From assembly GCA_024653215.1 (NCBI GenBank), contig JANLFU010000010.1, positions 19,625 through 83,624 on the forward strand: a stretch of 64,000 bases of DNA, written 5' to 3'. A model generated the notes under the pieces. That model saw nothing but the letters and a program-made list of their open reading frames with translations, was not told the DNA's origin and ran no database searches. Both the position numbers and the translations under genes were made by a program. Shown piece by piece: positions 11,863 to 34,979 of the stretch. The DNA comes from Candidatus Saccharicenans sp. Lineage in GTDB: Bacteria > Acidobacteriota > Aminicenantia > Aminicenantales > Saccharicenantaceae. Each line of letters begins with the position of its first letter. Position 1 is the first letter of the stretch.

Positions 11863-12216
11863 AGGCTTCCTCCCCTCTTCACTCTTTCAGAACCTCAATT
11901 CTATTATCCTGATTGAGTCCTGGCTGTCAACCGAAAATTGGCAGCGGCAGAACCGGGCCCGGGCAACCAGCCAAAAACTCAGTTAGAGCATCCGGTTGGA
12001 AGCCGGCAATATATTAAATTGGCTTTTTAAGCTTGAGCTCAGGGACTGTCTCTTCTTAAACCAATTTTCCTTTTACCCGGTCGGTCCCCTGGCAGCCACG
12101 GGTCTATTCGCCAACGGAACGTTGTTATAAATTTTCTTTGTTTATCATCATCCTATTTGCTTATAATATCCCTGATTAATCGGGCTGGCGAAAAAGCCGG
12201 AGATGAGGAGTTAGAC

Positions 12217-13761: not shown

Positions 13762-13788
13762 TCCCGAAAAAGCGAGGAATGTTATAAG

Positions 13789-20613: not shown

Positions 20614-21933
20614 TCAGAAACGGTAGTTTATGCCGACAGCCGCATCCCAGGTGCTCCTGTTATAGGTCACCGGGTAAGCGGGGAAGGGATATACCGAATC
20701 CTGCTTCTGGTATTTCTTGTAGAAAACGTAAATGGCCCCGAGTTCCAGGCTGAGCCGGTTAGTCAGGTTCAATTTCAGGCCGCCGCCAATGGTGTCGCTG
20801 CTGAGTTCATGGTTGATATCATCCTGGTATTCGGGAGCCAGGTCAAACTGGGTTCGGAGATAACCGGCACTCAGGGTAACCAGGCGGCTCAGGTCATATT
20901 CCAGCCCGGCTCCCAGCTCGTAGCTATTCTTATTTACCAGCGCTTCAGCCCCTTCCCAGTTGGCACTCCTGTCGAAATAGTAGCTGAAAGACAGGTAGCT
21001 GCGGAAAGCGGGAGTGAAGGCATAGCGCAGACCGGCTGACAGGATGGCCGGAATGTCATTCCGGAATTTCTCGCCGTCCGGGAACATTCCGGTGTCGTCG
21101 ACGGTCGTCTTATTGGTCAGTTCCAGCTTGGTGTTGAACTCATACTTCAGGCTGAAGGCCAGAGACTCGCTGGGCGTGAAGTTCAGGCTCAGGATGGGTG
21201 TAAAGCCGGTGCCGGTCTGCTTGACGTCGACTTGCTTGTCAGCCACCATGGCGGCATAACCCGTCTGGCCTACGGACATGAAGAAAGCATAGGCACTGAC
21301 CCAGGTGCCATTGGGGTTGATCATGACGTTGGTGATAGACCCCTCGTACTTGTTGGTGGCGGTGATAAGGCGAGCCCCGACGCCCAGGGCCAGGCTGGGG
21401 CTCAGGGCATAGGAGAAATTGAGCTGGTAGCCCATGAAGACCGATTCCCCCTTGAAGGCGATGTCCACGTCGTAGCCCGTGGTCGGCACCCCCATGTTGG
21501 AAATTAGCACGGGCAGGGTGGAAAAAGGAATCTCGAACGACGGCAGCCCGGTCTTGAAGTCGGCTGTTCCACCACCGGCATTGGGTCCCACCCCGAAGGA
21601 AATGGCCAGGTTACCCTTCTTATAAACCGCGTACAGGTTGGGGAAAAAGGGCACCCGGACTTCTCCCAGGTAATTGGGGTCGTTGAGCAGCGGGAAACCG
21701 TTAAGGATCTTCTTGTCCTGGGTGATTATCTGGTTGTGCAGCGAGAGGTGAAAGCCGTCTGATAGCTTGACCAGGCCGGCCGGGTTGTAGTAGACGGCAT
21801 CGACGTCGAGGGAAGCGTTTCGGGACAGGAGCCGGATGAAGGTAGCACTCTGGTTGTTGTTGGTCAGGATACCGGCCGTGGCACTTGAGGCCAGGAGGGC
21901 CAGAATCCCCAGAAGACACACCGTTTTCCTCAT
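20614..21933 (-). CDS. FadL/TodX-family outer-membrane transporter for hydrophobic compounds.
   Basis: Signal peptide. N-terminal NPAGL motif. 439 aa of beta-strand periodicity, ending INYRF. Confidence 0.6.
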   Translation of the reverse strand: MRKTVCLLGILALLASSATAGILTNNNQSATFIRLLSRNASLDVDAVYYNPAGLVKLSDGFHLSLHNQIITQDKKILNGFPLLNDPNYLGEVRVPFFPNLYAVYKKGNLAISFGVGPNAGGGTADFKTGLPSFEIPFSTLPVLISNMGVPTTGYDVDIAFKGESVFMGYQLNFSYALSPSLALGVGARLITATNKYEGSITNVMINPNGTWVSAYAFFMSVGQTGYAAMVADKQVDVKQTGTGFTPILSLNFTPSESLAFSLKYEFNTKLELTNKTTVDDTGMFPDGEKFRNDIPAILSAGLRYAFTPAFRSYLSFSYYFDRSANWEGAEALVNKNSYELGAGLEYDLSRLVTLSAGYLRTQFDLAPEYQDDINHELSSDTIGGGLKLNLTNRLSLELGAIYVFYKKYQKQDSVYPFPAYPVTYNRSTWDAAVGINYRF

Positions 21934-22573
21934 TCTTAACCTCCTTTGAGATGTGCTGAATATTATTCGAATTTTTGAATTAATTGCAACTGGTTTTTTT
22001 AGCCCGGCAGGCCGGGTTCAGATACGGAAAACTTCAGGTGTTTAAAGCAGACAGGCGGGGTATTCCTGGCCCGTACAGAGGCCGGGCTGGATGACAGGAC
22101 ATGATTGTTCCTTTATTAGGATAATCCAGGCGAAACCCGAGAGAGTGCCCTTACAGGCCAGAGGCACGATTCAAATCCCACTCCAACCATCCGGAAACGA
22201 TCTCCTGCCCCGGCCAGTTCTTTAATTCTTAATTTTTTCTATTAAGTTTTCTTGTAAGCCTGCTCGTCTTTTACTTGACAGGGATAGACCAAAAGTTTAA
22301 TTTAGAAGCATAGCGGGAGGCCAATACAGAGAAACCGGGGATGGGTAAGTATTGCTTTTTGAAGCCGTGTCCTGTCCTGCACGGGAAGAATTCCGCATCC
22401 AATGGCCCGAATCCATGCATCCCGGCAATCCCTTGTATTTTTATCGGAATAGTAGGATAATGGAAGAGTCATGACAGCCGACAGGATTGACCGGCGACCT
22501 GAGATAAACACCAGGCCCGGTTTTCATAACCGGATTAGACCTGACTCAATAGTAACCAAAAAGGAGGCTTGAT

Positions 22574-22813
22574 ATGTCCGAACTTACACCAGATGTCACC
22601 CTCGATAACAGCGGGCTGGCCTGTCCCATGCCAATCATCAAGACCAAGAAGGCCATCGACGGGATGCAAGTCGGCCAGGTGCTGAAGATGATCGCCACCG
22701 ACCCCGGTTCCATCCCCGATGTCCAGGCCTGGGTCAGCAAGACCGGTCATGAACTTCTGAAGCATGAAACCGAGGGCAACAGGTTCATCTTCTACATCCG
22801 CAAGACAAAATAA
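22574..22813 (+). CDS. tusA: TusA-family sulfur carrier protein.
   Basis: LDNSGLACPMPIIKTKKAI contains the CPxP active-site cysteine motif of TusA/SirA. 79 aa. GGAGG RBS. Confidence 0.85.
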   Translation: MSELTPDVTLDNSGLACPMPIIKTKKAIDGMQVGQVLKMIATDPGSIPDVQAWVSKTGHELLKHETEGNRFIFYIRKTK

Positions 22814-23056
22814 CAGCCGTCAGGGAAGACCTGTCTTCCCCGGCCCTTAGCATAAAAGCCCCGGGCTGAAGGAGAGCTAAGAGTGGTGGGACTCAAGCGG
22901 GAGGCTTTTTTCGGAAAGCCGGTTAATCCCTCTCTGCCGGGAATATTTTTCAATCCGAACTATCCCACACGATACTTACCCCTTACCACCACAAACCATT
23001 TCAGCCACCCGTCTCGGAATTTAAGTCAAGCTAACTTCAAAAAAGGAGGATAAATA

Positions 23057-23530
23057 ATGCCTGAAGGAAAAAAGAGACTGGCCATCATCTGCCTGCACGG
23101 CAGTCTTGACGTGGCCTTTGCCACCTTCGTCCTGGCCACGGCCGGGGCCGCCATGGAAATGGAGACCGCCGTTTATTTTGCCTTCTACGGGCTGGAAGTC
23201 CTCAAGAAGGGGAAAATCAACAAGCTCAAGGTTTCACCGCTGGCCAACCCGGCCATGCCGGTGAAAATTCCCAACATCATTGCCATGCTGCCCGGGATGA
23301 CCGCCGCGGCCACGGCCATGATGAAATCCTGGATGAAAAAATCCAAGGTGGCCACCCTGGGCGAACTGCTGGACACGGCCCGGGAACTGGGCGTCAGGCT
23401 TATTGCCTGCCAGATGAGCATGGACGTCATGGGGATCAAGAAGGAAGACCTCATAGACCGGGTTGAAATCGGCGGGGCGGCTACCTTCCTGGAATTTGCC
23501 AGCCAGGATGCCATCACCCTGACCTTTTAG
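23057..23530 (+). CDS. DsrE/DsrF-family sulfur-transfer protein (DsrE-like 1).
   Basis: DsrE/DsrF fold signature (LAIICLHGSLD..., conserved Cys in IACQMS). AGGAGG RBS. Confidence 0.7.
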   Translation: MPEGKKRLAIICLHGSLDVAFATFVLATAGAAMEMETAVYFAFYGLEVLKKGKINKLKVSPLANPAMPVKIPNIIAMLPGMTAAATAMMKSWMKKSKVATLGELLDTARELGVRLIACQMSMDVMGIKKEDLIDRVEIGGAATFLEFASQDAITLTF

Positions 23531-23539
23531 GAGGAAGCC

Positions 23540-23908
23540 ATGGCCGACGATAAAATCCTGATCATCATGACCAGTGGCCCGGACACACCCCGGCGCTGTG
23601 CCACACCCTTTTTCTTTGCCACTCTGGCCACCGCTATGGATTATGATGTCACCATGTTCTTCACCATTGACGGAACCCTGCTGCTCAAGAAAGGTCTGGC
23701 CGATACAGTTTTCCCCAAGGAAGGAGGCAAATCGGTCGGCGAATTCCTGAAAGAGGCCATGGACTCCGGGGTCAAGATGACCGCCTGCACCGCTTCCCTC
23801 GAACTTCACGGCCTGAGCCCGGAAGACCTGATTCCCGAGGTCAAGATGGTCGGTGGAGCTTCCATGTGGCAGATGGCCGAGGAAAGTAAGACTGTCTTAA
23901 CTTTCTGA
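23540..23908 (+). CDS. DsrE/DsrF-family sulfur-transfer protein (DsrE-like 2).
   Basis: ILIIMTSGPDTPRRCATPFFFA with a conserved cysteine. The 9-nt spacing from the previous gene indicates translational coupling. Confidence 0.7.
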   Translation: MADDKILIIMTSGPDTPRRCATPFFFATLATAMDYDVTMFFTIDGTLLLKKGLADTVFPKEGGKSVGEFLKEAMDSGVKMTACTASLELHGLSPEDLIPEVKMVGGASMWQMAEESKTVLTF

Positions 23909-23930
23909 GCGAATCAAAAAGGAGGAAACC

Positions 23931-24377
23931 ATGGCCATAATTCGCGGCTGTAACCTTCCCGAAGACCTCTACTATTACCCGGAAAAGCACCTGTGGCTAA
24001 AGCCGCTCGGTGGAAACCTCTTCCGTATCGGACTGACCCCCATCGCCGGAAAACTGGCCGGCGGTAAACTTAACGCAGTAACCATCAGGTCCAAGAACAT
24101 CGGCCAGGAAGTCCAGCATGGGAAAAGCCTGGCCACCCTGGAGAGCAGCAAGTACGTGGGTCCGGTGCCGGCTCCCATTACCGGCATCGTCAAGTCTGGA
24201 AACGACAGGCTGGCCGCCGACCCCAACCTGGTCATCAGCGACCCTTACGGCGAAGGCTGGGTGGCCGAGATCGAAGCCACGAAGTGGGACCAGGAAAAAG
24301 CTGCCCTGCTGACCGGGGCTGAAGGCCTGGCCGAATACGAAAAGAAACTGGCAGCGGCCGGGATCTCCTGCGGGTGA
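23931..24377 (+). CDS. GcvH-like lipoate-binding protein (LbpA-type) that is not part of a glycine cleavage operon.
   Basis: YYYPEKHLWLK matches the GcvH EHEWV motif, and TLESSKYVGPVPAPITGIV matches the lipoyl-lysine motif ESVKAxxDxYxPxxGxV. No gcvT/P is nearby. Confidence 0.75.
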   Translation: MAIIRGCNLPEDLYYYPEKHLWLKPLGGNLFRIGLTPIAGKLAGGKLNAVTIRSKNIGQEVQHGKSLATLESSKYVGPVPAPITGIVKSGNDRLAADPNLVISDPYGEGWVAEIEATKWDQEKAALLTGAEGLAEYEKKLAAAGISCG

Positions 24378-24456
24378 TATTTTTTGGGTGCGCTGGAAGA
24401 TTAAAAATTAAAGTTTATAAATCGCGAAAAAATAATTCCTTCGCCAAGGAGGGCAA

Positions 24457-25608
24457 ATGAAGGAAAAAACGATTTATGAGCACTTGAGGGAAAAGGGGCT
24501 CTCCCGGCGGGACTTCATGAAACTCTGCGGCACCATTGCCGGTATGATGGGCCTGGAGTTCGTACCGCCGGTCAAAGCCCTGGGCAAAACACTCGGACCG
24601 AGCCCGGAAGAAGTGGTGGCTCAGGCCCTTAAGACCAAGCCGAAAGTTCCCATCATCTGGCTGGAGTTCCAGGACTGCGCCGGGTGCAGCGAAGCCATCT
24701 CCCGCTCCAGCTCTCCCCTTCTCAGCAACCTGGTCCTAAATGACATTGCCATCGAGTACCACGAAACCCTGATGGCTGCGGCCGGCTTCCAGGCCGAGAA
24801 GGCCAAGGAAGAATGCATGAAGAAATACTTCGGGAAATACGTGCTGGTGGTTGAGGGCAGCCCTACCCTGGCCGATGACGGCATCTACTGCACCGTGGCC
24901 GGAAAAAGTAACCTGGACCTGCTAAAGGAAGCTGCAGCCGGGGCTGCTGCCGTCATCGCCACCGGAAACTGCGCCTGCTTTGGCGGAATCCCGGCAGCCC
25001 ATCCCAACCCGACCAGGGCCGTCGGCGTGGCCGACCTCATCAAAGACAAACCCGTGGTCAACATACCGGGCTGCCCGGCCATTCCTGAAGTTACCACCGG
25101 AACCATACTCCATTTCCTCATCCTGGGCCAGTTGCCTGAGACTGACCAGCTGAAAAGGCCTTTGCCCTTCTATGGCCACACGGTTCACGACCACTGCCTG
25201 CGCCGGCCATTCTACGAAGCCGGAAAATTCGCCGGAAGCTTCGACGACGAAGGAGCCAGGAAAGGCTATTGTCTTTACCGACTCGGTTGCAAGGGCCCGA
25301 CCACTTACAATGCTTGCGCCGGCCTGAAGTGGGAACGCGGCCTTTCCTATCCCGTTCAATCCGGCCACCCCTGCCTCGGCTGTTCCGAGCCTCATTTCTG
25401 GGATGGCGGCGGCTTCTACCAGGGTCAGTCGGCTCCAATCGTACGGCTTGATAAAAGTTCCACGGCCACCCTGGTCGGAGTCGGCGTGGCGGCCGGGGCC
25501 GCCCTGGCTGGCCTCAACGCTGTCAAGAAGAGCCGGGCCAAAAAGGATCTGAAAAAAGATCAGTCTCAGGCCGCCGGGTCTGATCCCGGGTCAAAGAAGG
25601 AGGGCTGA
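24457..25608 (+). CDS. hynS: [NiFe] hydrogenase small subunit, TAT-exported, with a C-terminal membrane anchor.
   Basis: Twin-arginine signal SRRDFMKLCG. Fe-S cysteine clusters (CAGCSEA, GNCAC, CPAIPE, GCKGPTTYNACA, CLGCSEP). A C-terminal hydrophobic helix. Confidence 0.9.
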   Translation: MKEKTIYEHLREKGLSRRDFMKLCGTIAGMMGLEFVPPVKALGKTLGPSPEEVVAQALKTKPKVPIIWLEFQDCAGCSEAISRSSSPLLSNLVLNDIAIEYHETLMAAAGFQAEKAKEECMKKYFGKYVLVVEGSPTLADDGIYCTVAGKSNLDLLKEAAAGAAAVIATGNCACFGGIPAAHPNPTRAVGVADLIKDKPVVNIPGCPAIPEVTTGTILHFLILGQLPETDQLKRPLPFYGHTVHDHCLRRPFYEAGKFAGSFDDEGARKGYCLYRLGCKGPTTYNACAGLKWERGLSYPVQSGHPCLGCSEPHFWDGGGFYQGQSAPIVRLDKSSTATLVGVGVAAGAALAGLNAVKKSRAKKDLKKDQSQAAGSDPGSKKEG

Positions 25609-25609
25609 G

Positions 25610-26287
25610 ATGAACTGGACGAATATCTTGAATTTCAGCCGCGGGCCACTGCTTCATGTGGCCATGATAATTTTCGTGGCCGGCCTGAGCTACCGGCTGG
25701 TCCGGGTTCTTTTGCTCGGCTGGGCGAGAGACAGGGCTAAGAACAAGGGCAGCAAGCTCTGGGGGGTAATCGTCAATTACCTGAAGGGCCTTTTCGTCCT
25801 GCCGTTTATTCCCTGGGTCAGGCGCACCTTCCGCCACAACGAGCTGACCTTTATCGCCGGCGGGCTGTTCCACCTCAGCCTGTTCCTGGTCCTGGTTTTC
25901 GGCACGGCCCATATTTTAGTCTGGAAGAGCCTCTGGGGTTTCGGCTGGAAGGGCCTGCCAACGCCCATCCTGGCTTTCTTCTCGGCCGCGGGCATAATTT
26001 CCATGATTGTCCTGCTGATAAACCGGCTCACCCACCCGGTGTTAAAAATGCTGACCAGGTTCCCGGTCTGGATAAACTGGCTGGTGGTTTTCCTGCCGAT
26101 GATAACCGGCTTCATCATGGCCAGGCACCTGTGGTTCAGGTACGAGGTGATTTTCAGCCTGCACCTGATTTCGGTCAGCCTGCTTCTAATCTGGGTTCCC
26201 TTCGGCCGCATCTCCCACTTCCTGTTTTACTTCTTTTCCAAGACCATCCACGGAGCCCAGGCTGGTAAGCGCGCGGTAACGCCCTGA
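25610..26287 (+). CDS. isp1: Isp1-like di-haem cytochrome b membrane subunit (NarI/DsrM-like).
   Basis: 225 aa with 5-6 TM helices and conserved His in the helices. Its position between hynS and an HdrD-like gene matches the Isp-type hydrogenase architecture. Confidence 0.65.
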   Translation: MNWTNILNFSRGPLLHVAMIIFVAGLSYRLVRVLLLGWARDRAKNKGSKLWGVIVNYLKGLFVLPFIPWVRRTFRHNELTFIAGGLFHLSLFLVLVFGTAHILVWKSLWGFGWKGLPTPILAFFSAAGIISMIVLLINRLTHPVLKMLTRFPVWINWLVVFLPMITGFIMARHLWFRYEVIFSLHLISVSLLLIWVPFGRISHFLFYFFSKTIHGAQAGKRAVTP

Positions 26288-26301
26288 AAAGGAGGCAAGC
26301 C

Positions 26302-27567
26302 ATGAAAAGCCAGAAAACGCAATCAGCCATAAACACCTACCTTAAGGAGACAGGTGGCTGGGTGGCCAGTCAGCTTGAGGCCTGTACCCGCTGCGGCATC
26401 TGCGCCGAAGCCTGCCATTTCTACCAGGCCCTGGGCAATCCAGAATATGCTCCCATCTGGAAGCTGGAGCCGCTGCGCCGGGCCTATGAGCAGCGCTTCA
26501 CGGTGGCCGGCAAGCTGAAATTAGCCCTTGGCCTGGAGAAAAAGCTCGCCGACTCCGACCTGGAACACTGGAGCAAAATCGTCTACGAGGCCTGCACCGT
26601 CTGCAACAAGTGCGCCCATGTCTGCCCGATGGGCATCCAACTCGGGCCACTGATTCACGGGGTCAGAGCCGGGATGGCTGCGGCCGGAGTGGTGCCCGCG
26701 GACCTGGCCGAAGCCACGGAGAAGCAGAAAACCGTCGGCAGCCCGCTGGGGGTTACCGACGAAATGTGGCGGGAAAGAATCGACTGGATCACCGACGAAT
26801 GGGAAGCTCAAATACCAGTTGATAAGGCCGGGGCCGAGAGCCTGGTAGTTTTCACCTCAATTGAGCTTATGAAATTTCCGGATAACCTGGCCGCGGTGGC
26901 CAGGATTCTCAACAGGGCCGGAGAAAACTGGACGGTGAGCTCAACCGGCCGGGAAGTGGTTAACTTCGGCTACTTTGAAGCCGACGAGGAGCTGACCAGG
27001 CTTTTCATGTACCGGGTCTTCAAGGCGGCCGAGGAGCTGGGCGTCAAGCGGATCATCATCAGCGAATGCGGTCACGCCTACGACGCTTTTCGCTGGGCAG
27101 CACCCAACATGATGAAAGTTCCAAAGGGAGTGGAAATCGCCCACATCAGCGAGTACATCCACCAGCTCTGGAAGACCGGCCGGATCAAGCTCAAAGAAGG
27201 AGCCTTTGACGGGGAGACCATCACCTTCCACGACTCCTGCAAAATTCAGCGCCGCGGTGGCATCATCAAGCAGCCGCGGGAGCTGCTCAGGGTACTGGCT
27301 CCCAGGAGTTTCAAAGAAATGACGCCCAACAAGGAGCAGTCCCTGTGCTGCGGCGGCGGGGGCGGTGTCATCTCCATCAAGGAAGCCGACGCCAACCGCT
27401 ATGCCGTCTTCGAGATGAAAATTGAGCAGCTCCAGGAAGTCCAGGCCAGGGCCGTCTGCATGGTCTGCAGCAACTGCCGTTTGCAGTTCGTGGACAGCGT
27501 GGGGCATTTCAACCTGCCGGTAAAAGTCCACGGCCTGGCCGAGCTGGTTTCCAAGGCCCTGGTTTAA
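26302..27567 (+). CDS. isp2: Isp2-like HdrD/DsrK/GlpC-family Fe-S protein with a CCG domain.
   Basis: Two ferredoxin-like CxxCxxCxxxCP motifs (CTRCGICAEACHF; CTVCNKCAHVCPMG), plus CCG-domain cysteines (SCKIQ...CCGGGGG; CMVCSNC). Confidence 0.75.
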   Translation: MKSQKTQSAINTYLKETGGWVASQLEACTRCGICAEACHFYQALGNPEYAPIWKLEPLRRAYEQRFTVAGKLKLALGLEKKLADSDLEHWSKIVYEACTVCNKCAHVCPMGIQLGPLIHGVRAGMAAAGVVPADLAEATEKQKTVGSPLGVTDEMWRERIDWITDEWEAQIPVDKAGAESLVVFTSIELMKFPDNLAAVARILNRAGENWTVSSTGREVVNFGYFEADEELTRLFMYRVFKAAEELGVKRIIISECGHAYDAFRWAAPNMMKVPKGVEIAHISEYIHQLWKTGRIKLKEGAFDGETITFHDSCKIQRRGGIIKQPRELLRVLAPRSFKEMTPNKEQSLCCGGGGGVISIKEADANRYAVFEMKIEQLQEVQARAVCMVCSNCRLQFVDSVGHFNLPVKVHGLAELVSKALV

Positions 27568-27582
27568 GGAAAGGAGGGGAAA

Positions 27583-27903
27583 ATGGCATCCTTTAATCTT
27601 ACCCCGGTGGAAAAAGGAATCCTCAGGTGCCGTCACACCGGCCCCTTTACCCCTGAGGACATTCAATCCCTGACGGTTTTCTTCAGGGAATACCACGGCA
27701 AGCTGCTGATAGACCTCAGCGGAACTGACCCGTCCGAATGCCTGCGGCACATCAGGCACATGAGGCCGATCATGCCAACCGCGGCCATTTTCGGGGCCGA
27801 AATAGACCCCAAAATTCTGGAGATAGACCGCAGTTACTACGCCAACGAGGTGCGCTGGTTCCGGACCGAAAAAGAAGCCCTGGAATGGCTTCGCAACCAG
27901 TAA
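27583..27903 (+). CDS. Hypothetical 106-aa protein inserted between isp2 and hynL.
   Basis: Strong RBS (GGAGGGG) and tight spacing in the operon. No recognisable family. Confidence 0.5.
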   Translation: MASFNLTPVEKGILRCRHTGPFTPEDIQSLTVFFREYHGKLLIDLSGTDPSECLRHIRHMRPIMPTAAIFGAEIDPKILEIDRSYYANEVRWFRTEKEALEWLRNQ

Positions 27904-27918
27904 TGGGAGGAGGACAAA

Positions 27919-29658
27919 ATGGCTAATCGAATCGTCATCGATCCTATAACCAGGATAGAAGGTCACTTAAGGATTGAAGCCGCGATCGATGGGAACAACA
28001 CCATCACCGAGGCCTACTCGGCTGGAACCATGGTTCGCGGCATCGAAAACATCCTGAAGAAGCGCGACCCGCGCGATGCCTGGGCCTTTGCCCAGAGAAT
28101 CTGCGGGGTTTGCACCACGGTCCATGCCATTGCCTCCATCCGGGCGGTAGAAGACGCGCTAGGCATAAACATTCCTAAAGCAGCCAACCTGATGCGAAAC
28201 ATGATCATCGCCCAGCAGTACATCCATGACCACGTGATGCATTTCTACATCCTGCACGCCCTGGATTTCGTGGACGTGGTCAGTGCCCTGAAAGCTGACC
28301 CGAAGAAAACCTCGGACATCCAGCAGAGCATCTCCGGCTGGCCCAAATCCTCCCCGGCCTACTTTGCCGAGGTCCAGAAAAAGGTTCAGGCCATCGTCGA
28401 TAGCGGCCAGCTATCGCTTTTCAGCAATGGCTACTGGGGGCACCCGGCCTACAAGCTCCCGCCGGAAATCAACCTGCTGGGCGTGGCTCACTACCTGGAG
28501 TGCCTGGACTGGCAGTCACAGGTGACCAAGATCCACACCATCTTCGGCGGCAAGAACCCGCATCCCAACTTCGTGGTGGGAGGGGTGCCGCTACCCATTG
28601 ACATGAACTCGGACCAGGCCCTGAACGCCGAGAAGCTGGCGGTGATAGCCGATTCCATCAAGAGGATGAACGACTTCGTTGACCAGGTTTACCTGCCGGA
28701 CCTGCTGGCCGTGGCTCCCTATTACCTGGAATATGCGGCGGTCGGCGAAGGGTTGGGTAATTTCCTGGCCTGGGGGGAATTTCCTGAAGGGCAGCTCAAC
28801 GAAATTGATAAGCTGATTTTCCCCAGGGGTGTCATCGTCAACCGTGACCTGAAGAACGTTATCGTGCCCGACCCGAGAGATGCGGCCAGGATGAAAGAAT
28901 TCATCACCCATAGCTGGTATAAGTACAGCCAGGGCGACGAAACGGGCCTGTTTCCCTGGGAAGGCGAAACAGTCTTTAATTACACGGGTCCAAGACCGCC
29001 TTACGAATACCTCAACGTCGAGGGCAAGTATTCCTGGTTGAAATCACCCCGCTGGAACGAGCTGCCGATGGAAGTCGGCCCCCTGGCCCGGGTGCTGATT
29101 CTTTATGCCACGGGGCACAAGGAGACGGTTGCCCTGGTCAACGCCGTTCTGGAAAAGCTCAGGGCTCCGGTCAGCGCCGTGTTTTCGACGCTCGGACGGA
29201 CGGCGGCCAGGGCCATTGAGACCAAGGTCATCGCCGGGCTGCTTCAGAAGTTCTATGACGAGCTGGTGGCCGAGATTAAAGCCGGAAACACCGACACCTT
29301 CAACGACGAAAAATGGGAGCCCCGGACCTGGCCGAAGAAGGCGCTCGGTTTCGGCTATACCGAGGCGCCGCGCGGAGCCCTGGGGCACTGGGTGGTGATA
29401 GAGAACAGGAAAATCAAGAATTACCAGATAGTGGTGCCGACCACCTGGAATGCTTCGCCCCGCGACCACAGGAACCAGGCCGGCGCCTATGAGGCTTCGC
29501 TGGTCGGAACTAGGCTGGCCAACCCCGAACAGCCGCTGGAGATTCTACGGACGCTTCATTCCTTCGACCCGTGCCTGGCCTGCGCCGTGCACCTGGTCGA
29601 CACCAGCGGGAAGAAGGTCGGAGAAGCGGCCACCGGCTTTAACCTGGTTGTCCGCTGA
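27919..29658 (+). CDS. hynL: [NiFe] hydrogenase large subunit.
   Basis: N-terminal RIEGH and RICGVC (CxxC) motifs. C-terminal DPCLACAVH (DPCxxCxxH), followed by a 21-aa extension that is the expected substrate of the maturation endopeptidase. Confidence 0.92.
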   Translation: MANRIVIDPITRIEGHLRIEAAIDGNNTITEAYSAGTMVRGIENILKKRDPRDAWAFAQRICGVCTTVHAIASIRAVEDALGINIPKAANLMRNMIIAQQYIHDHVMHFYILHALDFVDVVSALKADPKKTSDIQQSISGWPKSSPAYFAEVQKKVQAIVDSGQLSLFSNGYWGHPAYKLPPEINLLGVAHYLECLDWQSQVTKIHTIFGGKNPHPNFVVGGVPLPIDMNSDQALNAEKLAVIADSIKRMNDFVDQVYLPDLLAVAPYYLEYAAVGEGLGNFLAWGEFPEGQLNEIDKLIFPRGVIVNRDLKNVIVPDPRDAARMKEFITHSWYKYSQGDETGLFPWEGETVFNYTGPRPPYEYLNVEGKYSWLKSPRWNELPMEVGPLARVLILYATGHKETVALVNAVLEKLRAPVSAVFSTLGRTAARAIETKVIAGLLQKFYDELVAEIKAGNTDTFNDEKWEPRTWPKKALGFGYTEAPRGALGHWVVIENRKIKNYQIVVPTTWNASPRDHRNQAGAYEASLVGTRLANPEQPLEILRTLHSFDPCLACAVHLVDTSGKKVGEAATGFNLVVR

Positions 29659-30020
29659 AGCTGCACACAATCTAGGTTTAAGAAGTGATTGGACGGCCAA
29701 GAGCTTGAAACGCCGGGACTGGCCCGTTAACCAGGTGAATCATAATTCCGGAGGAGTAAGAGCACAGACCGGGCACTGGCAACGGCAGATGATAGAAACG
29801 TTTGAAAAATTGAAGATATCTAACCGAAAAAGAACAAACGGCCCGGTTGGGGTTCCAGCCCTTCAGGGACAAGACGCTGTTCAGAAAACCGCCTTATTCC
29901 AGGACGGCCACAAATGGCAGGTAGCTGCTAACCTGGGTAAAACTGGCGTGCGGTCAGCTGTCCGGACCAGAAAGAAGCGGCAGTCACAACGTGTCGTCAT
30001 GGGGACGAAACCTATTAGAT

Positions 30021-30040
30021 ATATGAATGGTTATTCATAT
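30021..30040. promoter_or_regulatory. Perfect palindrome ATATGAA-N6-TTCATAT in the hynL-hynD intergenic gap; candidate transcription-factor operator.
   Basis: 7-bp inverted repeat with a 6-bp spacer, 38 nt upstream of the hynD start. The same half-sites and spacing recur at 58481..58500. Confidence 0.45.
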
Positions 30041-30077
30041 GTCCTGAAACTGGCCGAATCTGAGGGCAGAAACTGAA

Positions 30078-30569
30078 ATGACCAAGAGAATTGTGGTGCT
30101 TGGAGTGGGAAACATCCTGAACCGGGATGAAGGAGCGGGAGTGCAGGCCCTAAAAGAACTGGAAAAAATTCTACCCGCTGGCCTGAAGCCGAAGGTTGAG
30201 CTGGTAGATGGCGGGGTGCTGGGGATGGACCTTCTCCCCTACGTGGAACGGGCCACTCACCTGCTCGTCCTGGATGCGGCGGATTTCCAGGGCCGGCCGG
30301 GAGAAATCCGGGAGTTTCCGGGAGGGGCGCTAAAAACATTTTTCTCAGGCAAGATTTCCTGGCACCAGCTCGGCTTCCAGGAGGTGCTGGAAGTAGCCCG
30401 GGTCAGAGGGCACTATCCGGGACAGGTTCACCTGATCGGCGTTCAGCCGGGGGACATGGAAGTCGGACTGGGCTTAAGCGAAGCTCTGGAGCTTTCCGTG
30501 AAGGACATGGCCAGAAGGGCCCTGGATATACTGAAAAACTGGCTCGAAGATACTGACCATGCAGGATAA
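30078..30569 (+). CDS. hynD: Hydrogenase maturation endopeptidase (HyaD/HybD/HynD family).
   Basis: IVVLGVGNILNRDEGAG ... LLVLDA is typical of the family. 163 aa. Confidence 0.8.
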   Translation: MTKRIVVLGVGNILNRDEGAGVQALKELEKILPAGLKPKVELVDGGVLGMDLLPYVERATHLLVLDAADFQGRPGEIREFPGGALKTFFSGKISWHQLGFQEVLEVARVRGHYPGQVHLIGVQPGDMEVGLGLSEALELSVKDMARRALDILKNWLEDTDHAG

Positions 30570-30906
30570 ATTCCGGAGGATTACCCCTCAAATAAAAATG
30601 TTAACTTGCACCATCTACAGGTCCAGGACCAAGTACAGGAAACAGAAGAGTCACCATGCGCTTCAGGTTCAAGTGGCAGCAAGAATCCTGCCTGTGCGAA
30701 GTCTTAATCAAAGGCTTCTGGCCTTTACCAGATATTCAGCTCCAGAAACCCGAACTCTGAAGCCTGGATTGAGGCATTAATAAAACAAATTTCCGAGGGA
30801 TTGATTTATAAAACTAAATAAGGCAAAAAAGGCATTAATTACCAAAATGGGGCTAATCAAAAAACAAACGATAAATCATCTTAAGGACCTGGAAAGGAAA
30901 TAAAGG

Positions 30907-32007
30907 ATGGACGGGAATCATAGGAAAAGAATAAGGGGCATCGACCTGGGGGAAGTGCCGGCCGTTAGGTCGCAGACTTGCTACCATGCTGTCGGCTACG
31001 CCTTTGGACCCAAAACTCCTGATACCATCATCCTGGTCAGCCCCGCGAGTCCCTATGTCTGTGTCGGCTTCCACCAGGAAGCGGAGAGGGAAGTTGACCT
31101 GGAATACTGCCGGCAGGCCGGGCTGCCCGTCTACCGGCGCGAAGTCGGAGGCGGCGCTGTCTATCTCGACCGGAACCAGCTTTTCGTGCAGTGGATTTTC
31201 CACCCGGAAAGCCTGCCCCTCGAGCTTGAGGATAAATTCAGGTTCTACGTTGAGCCAATTATCCTCACCTACCGGGAGCTGGGAATTGAGGCCTCTTACC
31301 GCCCGGTTAATGACATCCACGTAGCCGGAAAGAAAATCGGAGGCACGGGCGCGGCCAGGATCGGCCAGGCGGACATCCTGGTCGGAAGTTTCATGTTTGA
31401 TTTTGATAAGAAAACGATGGCCAGGGTGCTCCGGGTTTCCTCAGAAAAGATGCGTGACAAGGTCTTCCAGAGCCTGGAGCAGTATATGACCACGATGAAA
31501 GAACTGTTGCCGGAACTTCCCGCCAGAGAGATTGTTAAGAGAATTTATCTGAATAAGGTGGCAGAACTGCTGGAAGCCGAAGTAGAGGCAGGCGGAATGT
31601 GCGAGGCAGAACTTCAAGAGGCGGAAAGGCTGGACCGCCTTTTCCAGAGCGAGGACTGGATTTTCCAGAAGGGACCGCTGCGCCGGCCTTCCGTCAAGAT
31701 CCACGAAGATGTCCACGTGCGCGAGGTGGATTATAAAGCTCCGGGCGGATTGATCAGGTTGACAGCCAGGATCAGGACGGAGGGCGGAAAACCGATCCTG
31801 GATTCGGTCTGGATTTCCGGCGACTTCACCGCCATTCCCAAGGAAGGTATATTCATCCTGGAAGATAGGCTGCGGGGTATTGCCATCGAGGAAAAAAGCA
31901 TCGGTGAAGCGGTCTGCCGGGCTCTTGGAGAATCGGGGCTGCAGTGTCCCGGACTGACAGAACAGAGCTGGATTTCTGCCCTGCTCAGGCTGACCGATTC
32001 CGGGTAA
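30907..32007 (+). CDS. lplA: Lipoate-protein ligase A family protein.
   Basis: HVAGKKIGGTGAARIG matches the LplA lysine-loop motif (GRKISGSAQ). 366 aa with a C-terminal accessory domain. Confidence 0.7.
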   Translation: MDGNHRKRIRGIDLGEVPAVRSQTCYHAVGYAFGPKTPDTIILVSPASPYVCVGFHQEAEREVDLEYCRQAGLPVYRREVGGGAVYLDRNQLFVQWIFHPESLPLELEDKFRFYVEPIILTYRELGIEASYRPVNDIHVAGKKIGGTGAARIGQADILVGSFMFDFDKKTMARVLRVSSEKMRDKVFQSLEQYMTTMKELLPELPAREIVKRIYLNKVAELLEAEVEAGGMCEAELQEAERLDRLFQSEDWIFQKGPLRRPSVKIHEDVHVREVDYKAPGGLIRLTARIRTEGGKPILDSVWISGDFTAIPKEGIFILEDRLRGIAIEEKSIGEAVCRALGESGLQCPGLTEQSWISALLRLTDSG

Positions 32008-32368
32008 ATTGCGGTTGGCCCCTGCCCCCGAAGCAGATAATATGCATCAAGGCGGAGCAAAAAATTATAAAGGCTCTTGGTCGCCGGATTTATTGATTAT
32101 CGAGTGGGGTTTATAGGTTTTCTTTCAGCCAAAGTATATAAAATGAATTTTTCACCGGGGAAGCCGGCAAATGACCTTCTCAAAGTCTGTATCAAAGACT
32201 TAACCGTGTTTCGTTGTATATCCGTCTGCCTGGCCGGCTCTCAACTTCCTCATAATAATAACGATACAGGAAAAAATACCCCAGGCTGCCAGGTAAATAA
32301 ATTCGGGTTTTTAAGTTGCCTATTATCAGGTAGCCGTCTATAATAGAAAATAAGGCAGGAGGTAAAAC

Positions 32369-32863
32369 ATGATCAGCAAAAAGATGGAAGAAGCCATCAA
32401 CAAACAGATCAACGAGGAGATGTATTCGGCCTATCTTTATCTGTCGATGGCCGGGTACTTTGCCGAGCAGAACCTGATGGGTTTCCACAACTGGCTGTAT
32501 GTTCAGTACCACGAAGAGCTGGAGCATGCCGAGAAATTCTACAAGTATCTGGTGGAACGCGGCGGGCAGGTCAGGCTGGCCGCTATCAAGGAACCCGAGC
32601 ACACCTGGAAAAACGCCAGGGATGCCTTCGAGGCGGTCCTCAAGCACGAACGGCACATTACCGGCAGGATTAACGAGCTGGTGGACATAGCCGAAGCAGA
32701 AAAGGACCGGGCTTCTTTCGCCATGCTGCAGTGGTTCGTCAACGAGCAGGTCGAAGAAGAAGCTAACGCCCAGGACATCCTGTCCAAGCTGGAGATGGTG
32801 GGCGACCACAAGCAGGGCCTGCTGATGATCGACCGGGCCCTGGCCGAACGGAAAAAAGGCTGA
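32369..32863 (+). CDS. ftn: Non-haem ferritin.
   Basis: EEMYSAYLYLSMAGYF ... EELEHAEKF ... LQWFVNEQVEEE are ferroxidase-centre ligand motifs. 164 aa. Confidence 0.85.
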   Translation: MISKKMEEAINKQINEEMYSAYLYLSMAGYFAEQNLMGFHNWLYVQYHEELEHAEKFYKYLVERGGQVRLAAIKEPEHTWKNARDAFEAVLKHERHITGRINELVDIAEAEKDRASFAMLQWFVNEQVEEEANAQDILSKLEMVGDHKQGLLMIDRALAERKKG

Positions 32864-32869
32864 CAAAAA

Positions 32870-32907
32870 AGGGGGACACAATATCGTGTCCCCCGTTCTA
32901 TTTTTTC
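32870..32907. terminator. Bidirectional rho-independent terminator shared by ftn (+) and the transglutaminase-like gene (-).
   Basis: GGGGGACAC-aatatc-GTGTCCCCC is a perfect 9-bp stem. It is preceded by an A-run and followed by TTCTATTTTTT. Confidence 0.75.
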
Positions 32908-34979
32908 CTGAGGACTATCTGCTGACTGTCACGAGCCAGGACAAAGTCAAAAAACTCTTTCAGGTGAATATACTCGTTGACCGGAAATAGATTTTTCTTG
33001 ATGGCCAGCCGCCTTTCCACGCGCAACTGACCCGGCTCATCCTGGCTACAGGCCAGGTTAAAACCGGCCCGTTCCGAATCCCTGGTCTTAGCTTCGGGAA
33101 GCGCCTCCACCTCGTAGCCATCGGGTAATTCGATTATGATTTCGTCAATCTCAGCGTACGGGTAATTGAAATAAACCGGGTATTTCCTGAAAGCGGAGCG
33201 GAAAGGATAGCGGCCCGGATTGGTCAGGGCATAGACCGGAAGCAACAGCTTGTCACCGGCTTCATGTATCACCCCGGAAACCGTGGCCTCAAACTCAGCA
33301 GCCAGTTCGGCTGATCTTTCTTTAAGCCCCGTAAGATCCTTTAGCTTAACCTTACTGCCGGCTGGTAGTTTCTTGAGCAGCTCTTCTTCCAGGATTTCCT
33401 TAAACTTCATTGCATCCTTTTCCCTGTTACCAAACTTCCTTGATAGGGCTTCCTGTCCCCTGTATTCTACCCGGATTGTGCCGGTCAGATTGCCCTGGCC
33501 ATCAGGTCGCAATTTCGCTATTTGCCTGCAGCTTGAGTCATCAGCCGAAGTCGAGGGGCTGGTGAAAAAGCTCATCCGGTCATTCTCGAAGGTCAGGGCC
33601 GTGGTCCCGGTCCTCGGCCAGTAAACCATCTCGTATGGGCAACCGGGCAACCCGGGGTCAAACGCCTGGAACCTATTTCCAATTTTTACCATGACAATTT
33701 CCGAATCTAACTGCTCCTTGAACAAGGGGATATCAGCCTTGAAAATCTTTTCGTCTCGACTGGCCACCCTGACCAGGTAGGTCTCGAAGCCCGCCGCCCG
33801 GGCCAGGGCGGCAAAGGTCCTGGCAATCTGGTTCTTATACCCATAATTCCTTTTTAGAACGTCCCTGACATCATTGTTTGGCTTGATCTTTTTCCATTCT
33901 TTTTCTGACATTGACGGGACATAATCCAGGTTCTTTATGTCCTGGACACGCTCATATAGTTTCCTCAATTTAACTTCGGGGTCAGTTGCCCCTTCGACCA
34001 GGGCCAGAACCTCTTTTTGCAGACCTTTCCCGCCAGTCATAAATTCCTCATAAATTTGTTTCCAGGAGCCGGCCGCTTTCTCCCAGTATTCATCGTTACT
34101 TCTGATGTCTGGAGGGAGATAATAAATCTTAAAAGAAATCTTTTCGGCATTTTCCGGCGGCATAAATTCTTCTCGTAAAAAGGGCGGGATATCATTTACT
34201 TCCAGTTCCAAACCTTTTTCAATCCTTTTCGGGAGGACGTTCCGAAGGTTATTGGTTACCCAGGCCATGTTGTATTTGCCGCCACTGCTAACCCCGGTAA
34301 CCGGGTCAGCTAAAAAAGTATATTTTGCTTTTTTTATATAGATGGAATCCTGTAATTCCCAGTTGACGGCAGACTGAGAGTAGAAATCATCCATCATGAT
34401 AAAAACCGCGTTAATACTGATCGACAGAACTCCATCGGTGATTATCCATAAAGGGCCCGGTTTCTCACCCGGTGACATCTCGTATTCATAATCAATTATC
34501 TGTCCAGCCGAAACACCGGGAATGGCCAGGGTCTTGATTCGGTTTTCAAACATTCCCTGCCTGGAAGCAATCTTATCCATTGTTTCCGGCACGACTTCAC
34601 GACGGCGCCCGTCAGTTTCATAAACGACAACCTTGATGTTTTTTACATCATTCAGCAGGGGAACATATGGAATTTCAAGGTTGGCATAATCTCTGCCGGC
34701 CGGGCTCAGGATTTTAATTCTCTTGAAGACCGATTTCACCTTTTTTTGATTATCATCTATTCTTTCATAATACAGGCAGACGGCCGGAGCCCCGGGGAGT
34801 TCCGGCAGGTCGCTCATGGCCAGGTCTTCAGGAGTTATTGGAGGCCTGGGCCGGGCCGGTTCCTTGGTCTGAGCGGAAAGTCCGAAATCAAGGACGGCAA
34901 TCACCAAAATCAGCAGAAGGATCATCTGGCCTAAATGATAACCCGATTTATGCTGTCGGAATGAACAGCGAATTTTCAT
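32898..34979 (-). CDS. Secreted DUF3857/transglutaminase-like protein. It is a paralog of the upstream gene but lacks the catalytic Cys.
   Basis: Signal anchor. Global similarity to 34991..37072. Where the paralog has YGDCKDKATLLAAL, this protein has YGYKNQIARTFAAL (Cys to Lys). Confidence 0.55.
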   Translation of the reverse strand: MKIRCSFRQHKSGYHLGQMILLLILVIAVLDFGLSAQTKEPARPRPPITPEDLAMSDLPELPGAPAVCLYYERIDDNQKKVKSVFKRIKILSPAGRDYANLEIPYVPLLNDVKNIKVVVYETDGRRREVVPETMDKIASRQGMFENRIKTLAIPGVSAGQIIDYEYEMSPGEKPGPLWIITDGVLSISINAVFIMMDDFYSQSAVNWELQDSIYIKKAKYTFLADPVTGVSSGGKYNMAWVTNNLRNVLPKRIEKGLELEVNDIPPFLREEFMPPENAEKISFKIYYLPPDIRSNDEYWEKAAGSWKQIYEEFMTGGKGLQKEVLALVEGATDPEVKLRKLYERVQDIKNLDYVPSMSEKEWKKIKPNNDVRDVLKRNYGYKNQIARTFAALARAAGFETYLVRVASRDEKIFKADIPLFKEQLDSEIVMVKIGNRFQAFDPGLPGCPYEMVYWPRTGTTALTFENDRMSFFTSPSTSADDSSCRQIAKLRPDGQGNLTGTIRVEYRGQEALSRKFGNREKDAMKFKEILEEELLKKLPAGSKVKLKDLTGLKERSAELAAEFEATVSGVIHEAGDKLLLPVYALTNPGRYPFRSAFRKYPVYFNYPYAEIDEIIIELPDGYEVEALPEAKTRDSERAGFNLACSQDEPGQLRVERRLAIKKNLFPVNEYIHLKEFFDFVLARDSQQIVLRKK

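Follow-up and report, generated by a model that had tools for sequence, protein, structure and literature searches.

We analysed a 64-kb stretch of DNA (hereafter the window) from a relative of Candidatus Saccharicenans (Aminicenantes), in which a membrane [NiFe] hydrogenase of the Isp type (group 1e) is encoded together with the proteins Isp1 and Isp2, with sulfur carriers, and with a lipoate-binding protein and its ligase. The block was read from the table of open reading frames (ORFs) and their translations. All of its genes lie on the forward strand, in the order TusA, DsrE2-like, DsrE3A-like, LbpA-like, HynS, Isp1, Isp2, orf106, HynL, HynD and LplA-like (Table 1). From dsrE2 to hynL the intergenic gaps are very short (1-79 bp); wider ones are found 3' of tusA (243 bp) and on either side of hynD (419 bp and 337 bp). 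The initial annotation had described two genes inserted between those of the small and large hydrogenase subunits. Its coordinates for isp1 and isp2 were exact and both genes are present, but three ORFs intervene between hynS and hynL, orf106 being the third.

Table 1. Genes of the hydrogenase and sulfur-carrier block, with positions in the window.
Feature	Position	Strand	Evidence
TusA sulfur carrier, 79 aa, Cys17 in CPxP motif	22574..22813	+	Pfam TusA E 9.5e-26
DsrE2-type sulfurtransferase, 157 aa, invariant Cys118	23057..23530	+	Pfam DrsE_2 E 9e-46
DsrE3(A)-like sulfurtransferase, 122 aa, invariant Cys20 and Cys83	23540..23908	+	Pfam DsrE E 6.7e-21
LbpA-type lipoate-binding protein, 148 aa, Lys74/Cys7/Cys147	23931..24377	+	Pfam GCV_H E 1.8e-25
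HynS, [NiFe] hydrogenase small subunit, Tat signal and C-terminal TM anchor	24457..25608	+	TIGR00391, Pfam, hydropathy
Isp1, membrane putative di-haem cytochrome b, 225 aa, NarI/DsrM/TmcC/HmcE-like	25610..26287	+	NCBIfam, invariant His, hydropathy
Isp2, cytoplasmic DsrK/HdrD-like Fe-S protein, 421 aa	26302..27567	+	Pfam CCG and Fer4_8, NCBIfam
orf106, STAS/SpoIIAA-like, 106 aa, invariant Cys16/His18/Cys53	27583..27903	+	Weak Pfam SpoIIAA-like, AF2 fold
HynL, [NiFe] hydrogenase large subunit, 579 aa	27919..29658	+	Pfam NiFeSe_Hases E 2.6e-227
HynD/HycI-type hydrogenase maturation endopeptidase	30078..30569	+	Pfam HycI E 6e-26; kept 3' of hynL in relatives
LplA-type lipoate-protein ligase, 366 aa, invariant Lys143	30907..32007	+	Pfam LplA-B_cat E 2.5e-38, NCBIfam

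Searching 185,579 species genomes with an alignment of Isp2, we obtained 551 relatives and kept the best 80, all with at least 61% identity in Isp2. We scored the presence of genes in these loci by tblastn with the window proteins, and built the conservation alignments from the 80 loci and two Chromatiaceae loci. The upstream block TusA-DsrE2-DsrE3-LbpA-HynS-Isp1 is kept in 65 of the 67 loci with enough upstream DNA, and the downstream genes HynL-HynD-LplA in 53 of the 57 testable ones. The loci are labelled Aminicenantes, Chloroflexota (Anaerolineae), Ignavibacteriota, Calditrichia and Actinomycetota. The active-site residues of the carrier block are all invariant (TusA C17, DsrE2 C118, DsrE3 C20 and C83, LbpA K74, LplA K143). 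Hence, conserved synteny across several phyla strongly backs the route from H2 to the TusA, DsrE and LbpA carriers that the initial annotation had put forward. One other neighbour recurs among the 80 loci, a regulator with HTH_17 and PocR domains encoded directly 5' of tusA in 39 of them, from other phyla, and absent from the window; examples are L028:5555-6319, L081:5696-6463 and L082:5485-6237 (locus identifier and positions). Apart from this regulator, no gene family recurs in the flanks of the 80 loci, a core of the sulfur-oxidising sHdr pathway included.

The clade of the window Isp2 is a single cluster at 50% identity, the representative of which is 57% identical to the query in an exhaustive search of representatives. 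The other full-length Isp2 relatives are at most 40% identical, with a classical proteobacterial representative (P0245) among the nearest. Some members of the clade carry additional genes. Several Chloroflexota loci (L034, L041-L043, L060 and L074) have an extra gene of the DsrE3 type (31-35% identical), which lies approximately 350 bp 3' of tusA, ahead of dsrE2. One metagenome-assembled genome (MAG) of Aminicenantes encodes a second DsrMK-like pair 3.5 kb 5' of tusA (L013:940-3050), made of a 231-aa protein without Pfam match and a 528-aa CCG Fe-S protein that is 32% identical to Isp2; its neighbours are a Nitro_FeMo-Co-family protein and a Cys/Met pyridoxal-phosphate enzyme.

The hydrogenase subunits are readily recognised. 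HynS scored 413 bits with the hydA model TIGR00391 (cut-off 179.5) and matched the Pfam families Oxidored_q6 and NiFe_hyd_SSU_C. It starts with a twin-arginine translocation (Tat) signal (TAT_signal_seq, E = 2.5e-6), and its hydropathy profile places a C-terminal transmembrane (TM) anchor at around residues 335-357. HynL has the N- and C-terminal Ni-Fe ligand motifs, RICGVC and DPCLACAVH, and a C-terminal extension for proteolytic maturation. Its top match in the PDB is 3MYR_B, the group 1e enzyme of A. vinosum (813 bits), followed by the group 1d Hyd-5 (708 bits). Identity to the Thermochromatium proteins is 62% for HynL and 53% for HynS. The gene order of the window is hynS-isp1-isp2-orf106-hynL, and approximately one-third of the related loci have the same order minus orf106. 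The assignment to group 1e rests on the ranking of the PDB matches, the gene order and the identity to the Chromatiaceae enzyme, all of which agree with the Isp type proposed initially. We are thus nearly certain, as far as sequences can tell, that the locus encodes a group 1e membrane [NiFe] hydrogenase with Isp1 and Isp2. Chance does not account for the observation: the profile matches have extreme E-values, and each of the 80 related loci repeats the architecture.

Isp2 had been described as a protein with two [4Fe-4S] clusters and a CCG domain. Pfam gives dicluster matches (Fer4_8/Fer4_17) and one CCG match at residues 307-396 (E = 3.7e-14). Both CxxCxxCxxxC motifs (C28/31/34/38 and C98/101/104/108) are invariant, and so is every cysteine of a complete CCG motif, C313-X35-C349C350G-X38-C389-X2-C392. 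Together with C256, these make 14 cysteines that are 100% conserved in 85 sequences, those of Chromatiaceae included, and the initial annotation's reading of Isp2, which a lack of conserved CCG cysteines would have refuted, therefore stands; C386 is poorly conserved (31%). A second complete CCG motif, in the style of HdrB or HdrD, was not found: there is a single CCG stretch in Pfam and the N-terminal half-domain keeps only C256. Hence, Isp2 resembles the single-CCG type of DsrK, HmcF and TmcB, and the earlier description holds for both ferredoxin motifs and for one of the two CCG motifs. Isp2 matches the models of DsrK (E = 1.8e-66), HmcF and TmcB (E of approximately 1e-65) at scores under their equivalog cut-offs (224.7 against 400 bits, 218 against 750 and 218 against 735, respectively). 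Judged by these scores, it is a relative of these families and not a member of them. An AlphaFold2 (AF2) model of Isp2 (pLDDT 84) has EtfD of M. smegmatis as top structural match (9OJN, TMq 0.74, E = 2e-14), followed by LutA and HdrB (5ODC_B); a sequence search of the PDB returned no DsrK structure for comparison. Neither a TM helix nor a signal peptide is predicted in Isp2.

Isp1 has no match in Pfam and none in a sequence search of the PDB. It does match membrane-anchor models of NCBIfam, namely TmcC (E = 8e-32) and HmcE (E = 5e-24), in both cases under the equivalog cut-off, and its hydropathy profile has approximately five hydrophobic helices. Four histidines (H88, H101, H185 and H203) are 100% conserved in an alignment of 84 sequences that includes the Chromatiaceae, in which H173 and H214 reach 98% and 94%. 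The pairs H88/H101 and H185/H203 lie within or beside the hydrophobic segments 79-103 and 178-204. Such histidine pairs in two helices are like the pattern of NarI and DsrM and predict two bis-His b haems, as expected from the cytochrome b assignment made at the outset.

The third intervening gene, orf106, has a weak Pfam SpoIIAA-like match (E = 3e-4) and none in a PDB sequence search. Its AF2 model (pLDDT 87) matches a STAS/SpoIIAA-like fold (2Q3L, E = 9e-4, TM of approximately 0.55). We found only 265 homologs in a database of 5.8 billion proteins, all of approximately 106 aa, unannotated and apparently all in this type of cluster. They keep Cys16, His18 and Cys53 invariant. The gene is directly 3' of isp2 in 53 of 78 loci and, since it is missing after isp2 in the others, seems dispensable in around one-third of them. 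For its product, a role as adaptor, in redox reactions or in metal binding is conceivable.

The proteins encoded around the hydrogenase are those of a sulfur-transfer system. TusA has its Cys17 invariant in 66 homologs and matches E. coli TusA/YhhP best in the PDB. The DsrE2-like protein matches the NCBIfam DsrE2 model under its cut-off (E = 2.5e-46) and the structures 3PNX and 2QS7, and its Cys118 is 100% conserved. The best PDB match of the DsrE3-like protein, in which Cys20 and Cys83 are 100% conserved, is 3MC3. These structures have been classified as DsrE2B (2QS7) and DsrE3A (3MC3, SSO1125) (Tanabe et al. 2024, PMC11094781). LbpA has a lipoyl-Lys74 in the motif ESSK, Cys7, and a penultimate Cys147 (...ISCG), all of them 100% conserved in 74 homologs. 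A conserved Lys, an N-terminal Cys and a C-terminal Gly-flanked Cys set the sHdr-associated LbpA apart from GcvH (Cao et al. 2018). By these sequence hallmarks the LbpA of the window is of the sHdr type. That it might be an ordinary GcvH was ruled out by the two extra invariant cysteines, by scores under every GcvH equivalog cut-off, by the adjoining dedicated ligase and by the lack of gcvT or gcvP nearby. This ligase, LplA, comprises a catalytic domain and an LplB-like C-terminal domain (NCBIfam matches lipoyltrans, LplAB and LplB), with an invariant K143. No TM helix is predicted in LbpA, and inspection of TusA, DsrE3 and LplA by eye showed no signal peptide. We therefore take Isp2, LbpA, TusA, DsrE3 and LplA as cytoplasmic. 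The core genes of sHdr (hdrC1B1A-hyp-hdrC2B2, or type II with etfAB and EMO) were found neither in the window nor within 10 kb on either side in L081 and L082. By its gene content, the block is thus a complete sHdr accessory set in which the Isp hydrogenase replaces the sHdr core.

The association can be compared with Isp hydrogenases outside this clade. To retrieve the classical enzymes, we searched with the A. vinosum HynL sequence as reconstructed from the PDB alignment. The Thermochromatium-type and Thiocapsa loci have the order HupH-HynS-Isp1-Isp2-HynL, and no TusA, DsrE, GCV_H or LplA gene lies within 10 kb on either side of these two Chromatiaceae loci. The Isp subunits of the window have diverged from those of Chromatiaceae (35% identity for Isp2 and 28% for Isp1) far beyond the catalytic subunits, which fits a changed partner. 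In Thiocapsa sp. KS1 a DsrC-family gene follows approximately 1 kb 3' of hynL, after a PhdYeFM/PIN toxin-antitoxin pair (L084:12699-13058); its product is a possible partner of Isp2 in classical group 1e hosts.

A metagenome scan with the outgroup Isp2 sequences provided 80 further loci, and some of these have carriers in other arrangements. In L095 (32-9197) the order is radical-SAM, LplA, DsrE, LbpA, HynD, HupH, HynS, Isp1, HynL and Isp2, such that isp2, the product of which is 39% identical to that of the window, lies 3' of hynL; the radical SAM gene is possibly lipoyl-synthase-like. L093 and L118 have a DsrE gene 3' of Isp2. In L098 (536-5230), and also in L099, LbpA, DsrE2, TusA, an ArsR/HTH_5-type regulator and Isp1-like and Isp2-like proteins are encoded together. 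The 10 kb of L098 contain no hydrogenase gene and its Isp2-like protein is 42% identical to that of the window. These two loci show that a module of carriers and a DsrMK-like pair can stand alone. The LbpA proteins of L095 and L098 retain the Cys/Lys/Cys hallmarks. In L151 (136-5021), DsrE2, TusA, a YeiH-like membrane protein, a sulfite-oxidase-like molybdoenzyme and a PALP enzyme are encoded in the stretch immediately 5' of HynD-HynS-Isp1-Isp2, with DsrE2, TusA and the molybdoenzyme approximately 4 kb away. In this locus an Isp hydrogenase occurs in an apparently sulfur-oxidising setting. Two loci (L090:3025-5543 and L129:7959-9843) have tandem isp2 paralogs 3' of isp1, 45-51% identical to the window Isp2 and placed 5' of hynL in L090; no carrier genes were detected in their available upstream DNA, which is only approximately 1.2 kb in L090. 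The spread over several phyla and the recurrence in rearranged clusters rule out that the association is a quirk of one lineage. The bare Chromatiaceae loci and the other Isp1/Isp2 architectures with LbpA, DsrE or TusA add to the case for the route from H2 to the carriers. On sequence grounds, this repeated independent co-localisation of LbpA and carriers with Isp1/Isp2-type modules is the strongest available support for functional coupling.

The nearest Isp2 homologs are annotated as Ca. Saccharicenans or Aminicenantes, and the cluster region is 92-93% identical in nucleotides to Ca. Saccharicenans subterraneus BY38 and to the Aminicenantes MAG Ch100. The initial annotation had referred to the sulfur bacteria in which such enzymes are linked to sulfur metabolism; the host here is a glycan-degrading relative of Ca. 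Saccharicenans and no classical sulfur bacterium. The remaining genes of the window are for glycan degradation and housekeeping (fucosidase, GH106 rhamnosidase, GWxTD protein, sodium:solute symporter, SRP54 and similar), and we found no sHdr, dsr, hyp or other sulfur-enzyme genes elsewhere in it. The glycan-use genes lie at 12157-15396 and 41872-45174 and encode a sodium:solute symporter, an alpha-L-fucosidase with an F5/8 type C domain and a GH106 alpha-L-rhamnosidase, consistent with the saccharolytic lifestyle attributed to Ca. Saccharicenans. A ferritin gene (32369-32863), kept in the Saccharicenans loci, is found 3' of lplA. It is followed by two tandem ORFs of 693 aa on the reverse strand (32898-34979 and 34991-37072), presumably paralogs given their equal length and adjacency; the first, the only one scanned, has DUF3857 and transglutaminase-core domains. 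The gaps around hynD (29659-30077 and 30570-30906) are long in the Saccharicenans lineage, whereas in other phyla hynD is 15-100 bp 3' of hynL. They have neither an Rfam match nor a convincing ORF. A non-coding stretch of 640 bp (21934-22573) precedes tusA, and inspection by eye of this stretch and of the 419-bp gap revealed nothing recognisable. In the whole window we found no Rfam match and no tRNA, and a scan of 21500-32500 for promoter and terminator consensus sequences gave a signal no higher than the shuffled background.

The mechanism proposed here builds on what was observed, namely the gene content, the motifs, the topology signals and the conserved synteny. We regard functional coupling of the Isp hydrogenase to the carriers as probable on this basis. 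On balance, we favour the reading that Isp1 and Isp2 of a group 1e hydrogenase are dedicated to a cytoplasmic TusA/DsrE2/DsrE3A-like/LbpA/LplA system and serve H2-driven reduction of sulfane sulfur. HynSL, exported by the Tat pathway and held by the C-terminal helix of HynS, would oxidise periplasmic H2, and the electrons would cross the membrane through the two b haems of Isp1 (H88/H101 and H185/H203). Since HynS alone has a Tat signal and a C-terminal anchor, Isp1 and Isp2 would be the only path encoded in the cluster from the periplasm to the carriers. The electrons would then pass through the two [4Fe-4S] clusters of Isp2 to the CCG-bound cluster, which may perform two-electron chemistry on a thiol/disulfide or a persulfide. 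DsrMK acts on DsrC, and HdrDE, through HdrD, reduces the CoM-S-S-CoB heterodisulfide; it is by analogy with these systems that we expect such chemistry of Isp2. The substrate may be the lipoyl disulfide of LbpA (Lys74-lipoate), sulfane sulfur bound to its Cys7 and Cys147, or both; sulfur on TusA or DsrE is an alternative candidate. LplA would lipoylate LbpA, while DsrE2, DsrE3 and TusA would deliver sulfane or thiosulfonate sulfur, to be released as H2S. The net result would be an H2-dependent reduction of sulfane sulfur with protons released outside and consumed inside. In this scheme we infer haem and cluster binding, the contact of Isp2 with LbpA or TusA, the substrate and the direction of flow. 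More tentatively, we propose that Isp2 acts physiologically on LbpA, which a DsrE2/DsrE3/TusA relay would load with sulfur, much as DsrK acts on DsrC. The block would then be a self-contained, lipoate-dependent H2:sulfane-sulfur oxidoreductase of a kind not recognised before. The pairing of LbpA with Isp2 gains from the fact that sHdr likewise uses CCG-domain subunits. TusA interacts with LbpA and with sHdr in Aquifex (PMC11094781).

Several points weigh against this proposal. The 80 loci were picked by Isp2 similarity and thus represent one clade and no unbiased sample. Carriers are missing from most of the distant Isp hydrogenase loci in the metagenome scan, so that coupling is not general to Isp hydrogenases. 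Co-transcription is deduced from gene spacing alone, and the spacing includes the wide gaps next to tusA and hynD. The top structural match of Isp2, EtfD, is an ETF:menaquinone oxidoreductase, and a DsrK-like CCG domain may accordingly pass electrons to quinone without any disulfide chemistry. The hydrogenase could then be linked by Isp1 and Isp2 to the menaquinone pool only, like a cytochrome b or a split EtfD/EMO, with the carrier genes merely co-located or co-regulated. The Hyn enzyme of Thiocapsa has been linked to the quinone pool, and both Chromatiaceae loci, like most distant ones, do without carriers. We nevertheless find coupling to quinone alone unlikely, because the genes are collinear in nearly all testable loci of several phyla and very closely spaced, because the association recurs in rearranged architectures, once with Isp1/Isp2-like genes and no hydrogenase, and because, the regulator aside, there is no recurrent neighbour able to use the carriers. 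It is very improbable that the carriers and the lipoyl protein act not in catalysis but in the biogenesis of the hydrogenase, for example by supplying sulfur to Fe-S clusters or as a redox chaperone. Their genes do adjoin that of the HynD maturation protease and, at some loci, that of HypC, and orf106 might encode an assembly factor, given its conserved Cys and His. However, maturation of classical group 1e and other [NiFe] hydrogenases proceeds in the absence of such genes, no part in it is known for a dedicated lipoate ligase or for an sHdr-type LbpA, and the carriers also occur beside an Isp1/Isp2-like pair without hydrogenase.

The direction of electron flow is a distinct matter, and we put the flow from H2 to sulfur at slightly less than an even chance. 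The potential of H2 is -414 mV, against approximately -290 mV for lipoamide and -270 mV for S0. This small gap leaves little driving force for electrogenic transfer at environmental H2 and counts against our proposal, as it makes both the direction and energy conservation uncertain. Group 1e enzymes are bidirectional according to HydDB, as quoted in PMC7735108, and this adds to the uncertainty, as does L098, which fits a flow from LbpA to quinone equally well. In the reverse direction, dihydrolipoyl-LbpA or sulfane sulfur on the carriers would be oxidised at Isp2, and the electrons would leave through Isp1 to quinone or, with the help of the membrane potential, to HynSL, which would evolve H2; the hydrogenase and LbpA would share one membrane haem module in an sHdr-like or EMO-like electron exit. 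LbpA, TusA, DsrE3A and a dedicated ligase are indeed the accessory set of a sulfur-oxidising pathway, the type II version of which sends electrons via EtfAB to an EtfD-like EMO, and Isp2 resembles EtfD. The bidirectionality and the hydrogenase-free L098 cluster are understandable in these terms too. Yet no sHdr core or other sulfane-oxidising enzyme was found in the window or within 10 kb of related loci, and the hosts belong, by label and gene content, to anaerobic fermentative or heterotrophic lineages that are not known sulfur oxidisers. Evolution of H2 from sulfur or lipoate couples should also be endergonic without input of proton-motive force. Finally, in Thiocapsa the physiological role documented for Hyn is to reduce S0 with H2 (PMC10892978). 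Because of this role and of the anaerobic, fermentative hosts, we prefer H2-driven reduction and hold the reverse flow to be rather improbable.

The block shares parts with several known systems and differs from each of them. The HynSL-Isp1-Isp2 enzyme of A. vinosum and T. roseopersicina has the same core order, the same Tat-exported and anchored small subunit, the same four histidines in Isp1 and the same 14 cysteines in Isp2. The window enzyme differs in its low Isp1 and Isp2 identities and its own 50%-identity cluster, in the STAS-like gene between isp2 and hynL, in the lack of HupH upstream and in the flanking TusA, DsrE2, DsrE3, LbpA and LplA; it occurs not in purple sulfur bacteria but in Aminicenantes, Chloroflexota, Ignavibacteriota and similar lineages. 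The sHdr-LbpA system of Hyphomicrobium denitrificans, Aquifex and Thioalkalivibrio has the Lys, Cys and Cys of LbpA, a dedicated ligase, TusA and DsrE2/DsrE3-type proteins in common with the block (Cao et al. 2018; Tanabe et al. 2024), and in both a CCG-domain Fe-S protein is the presumed catalytic partner. Unlike sHdr loci, the block and its flanks lack an hdrA/hdrB/hdrC-like core, LipS1, LipS2 and dihydrolipoamide dehydrogenase. Its CCG protein is the membrane-linked Isp2, with a periplasmic hydrogenase as electron source or sink.

Further resemblances concern the membrane module. DsrMK(JOP)-DsrC and HdrDE also combine a membrane di-haem b subunit with a cytoplasmic two-[4Fe-4S]/CCG subunit, for a disulfide or trisulfide bound to a protein or a cofactor, and the flexible C-terminal Cys of the window LbpA conceptually resembles the DsrC arm. 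In contrast to these, the window has no DsrC, DsrAB or DsrJOP, and the donor would be a hydrogenase docked on the same haem subunit and not only quinol. EtfD/EMO of M. smegmatis (9OJN) follows the same logic of a cytochrome b and a DsrK-like domain. However, EtfD is a single fused polypeptide with a fuller N-terminal Cys motif in the alignment and its partner is ETF, whereas no etfAB is found in the block. EMO belongs to type II sHdr clusters (PMC11094781). YTD clusters (YedE-TusA-DsrE2) are found in sulfur reducers and disproportionators (PMC8528874), and like the block they pair TusA and DsrE2 in anaerobes tied to reductive or disproportionating sulfur metabolism; the block lacks the YedE permease and adds DsrE3, LbpA, LplA and the hydrogenase.

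The insertion of Isp1 and Isp2 was already known, whereas their conserved joining with the sHdr accessory toolkit is new as far as we can tell. Reviews still describe Isp2 as HdrD-like or of unknown function, and papers on LbpA tie this protein strictly to sHdr. A full-text literature search, which did not cover the Ca. Saccharicenans genome paper (Extremophiles 2019), found no link of LbpA, TusA or DsrE to Isp hydrogenase. The block touches on two questions, the long-standing one of the cytoplasmic substrate of Isp2 and that of what the lipoate of LbpA does in sulfur metabolism, and nominates lipoyl-LbpA, persulfidated LbpA or persulfidated TusA as candidate Isp2 substrates. Abundant heterotrophs of the subsurface, sediments and digesters, among them Aminicenantes, Anaerolineae and Ignavibacteria, for which the usual annotation is that of fermenters, may use H2 with sulfur of intermediate oxidation state, a link between the hydrogen and sulfur cycles that surveys based on psr, sre or dsr markers would miss. 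If LbpA is the substrate of Isp2, the block would give Aminicenantes, Anaerolineae, Ignavibacteria, Calditrichia and Actinomycetota either a sulfur-dependent electron sink or hydrogenotrophic sulfur respiration by a new route. The pair of LbpA and a CCG protein would then be a portable redox module that can serve sHdr, a hydrogenase or a bare DsrMK-like quinone module.

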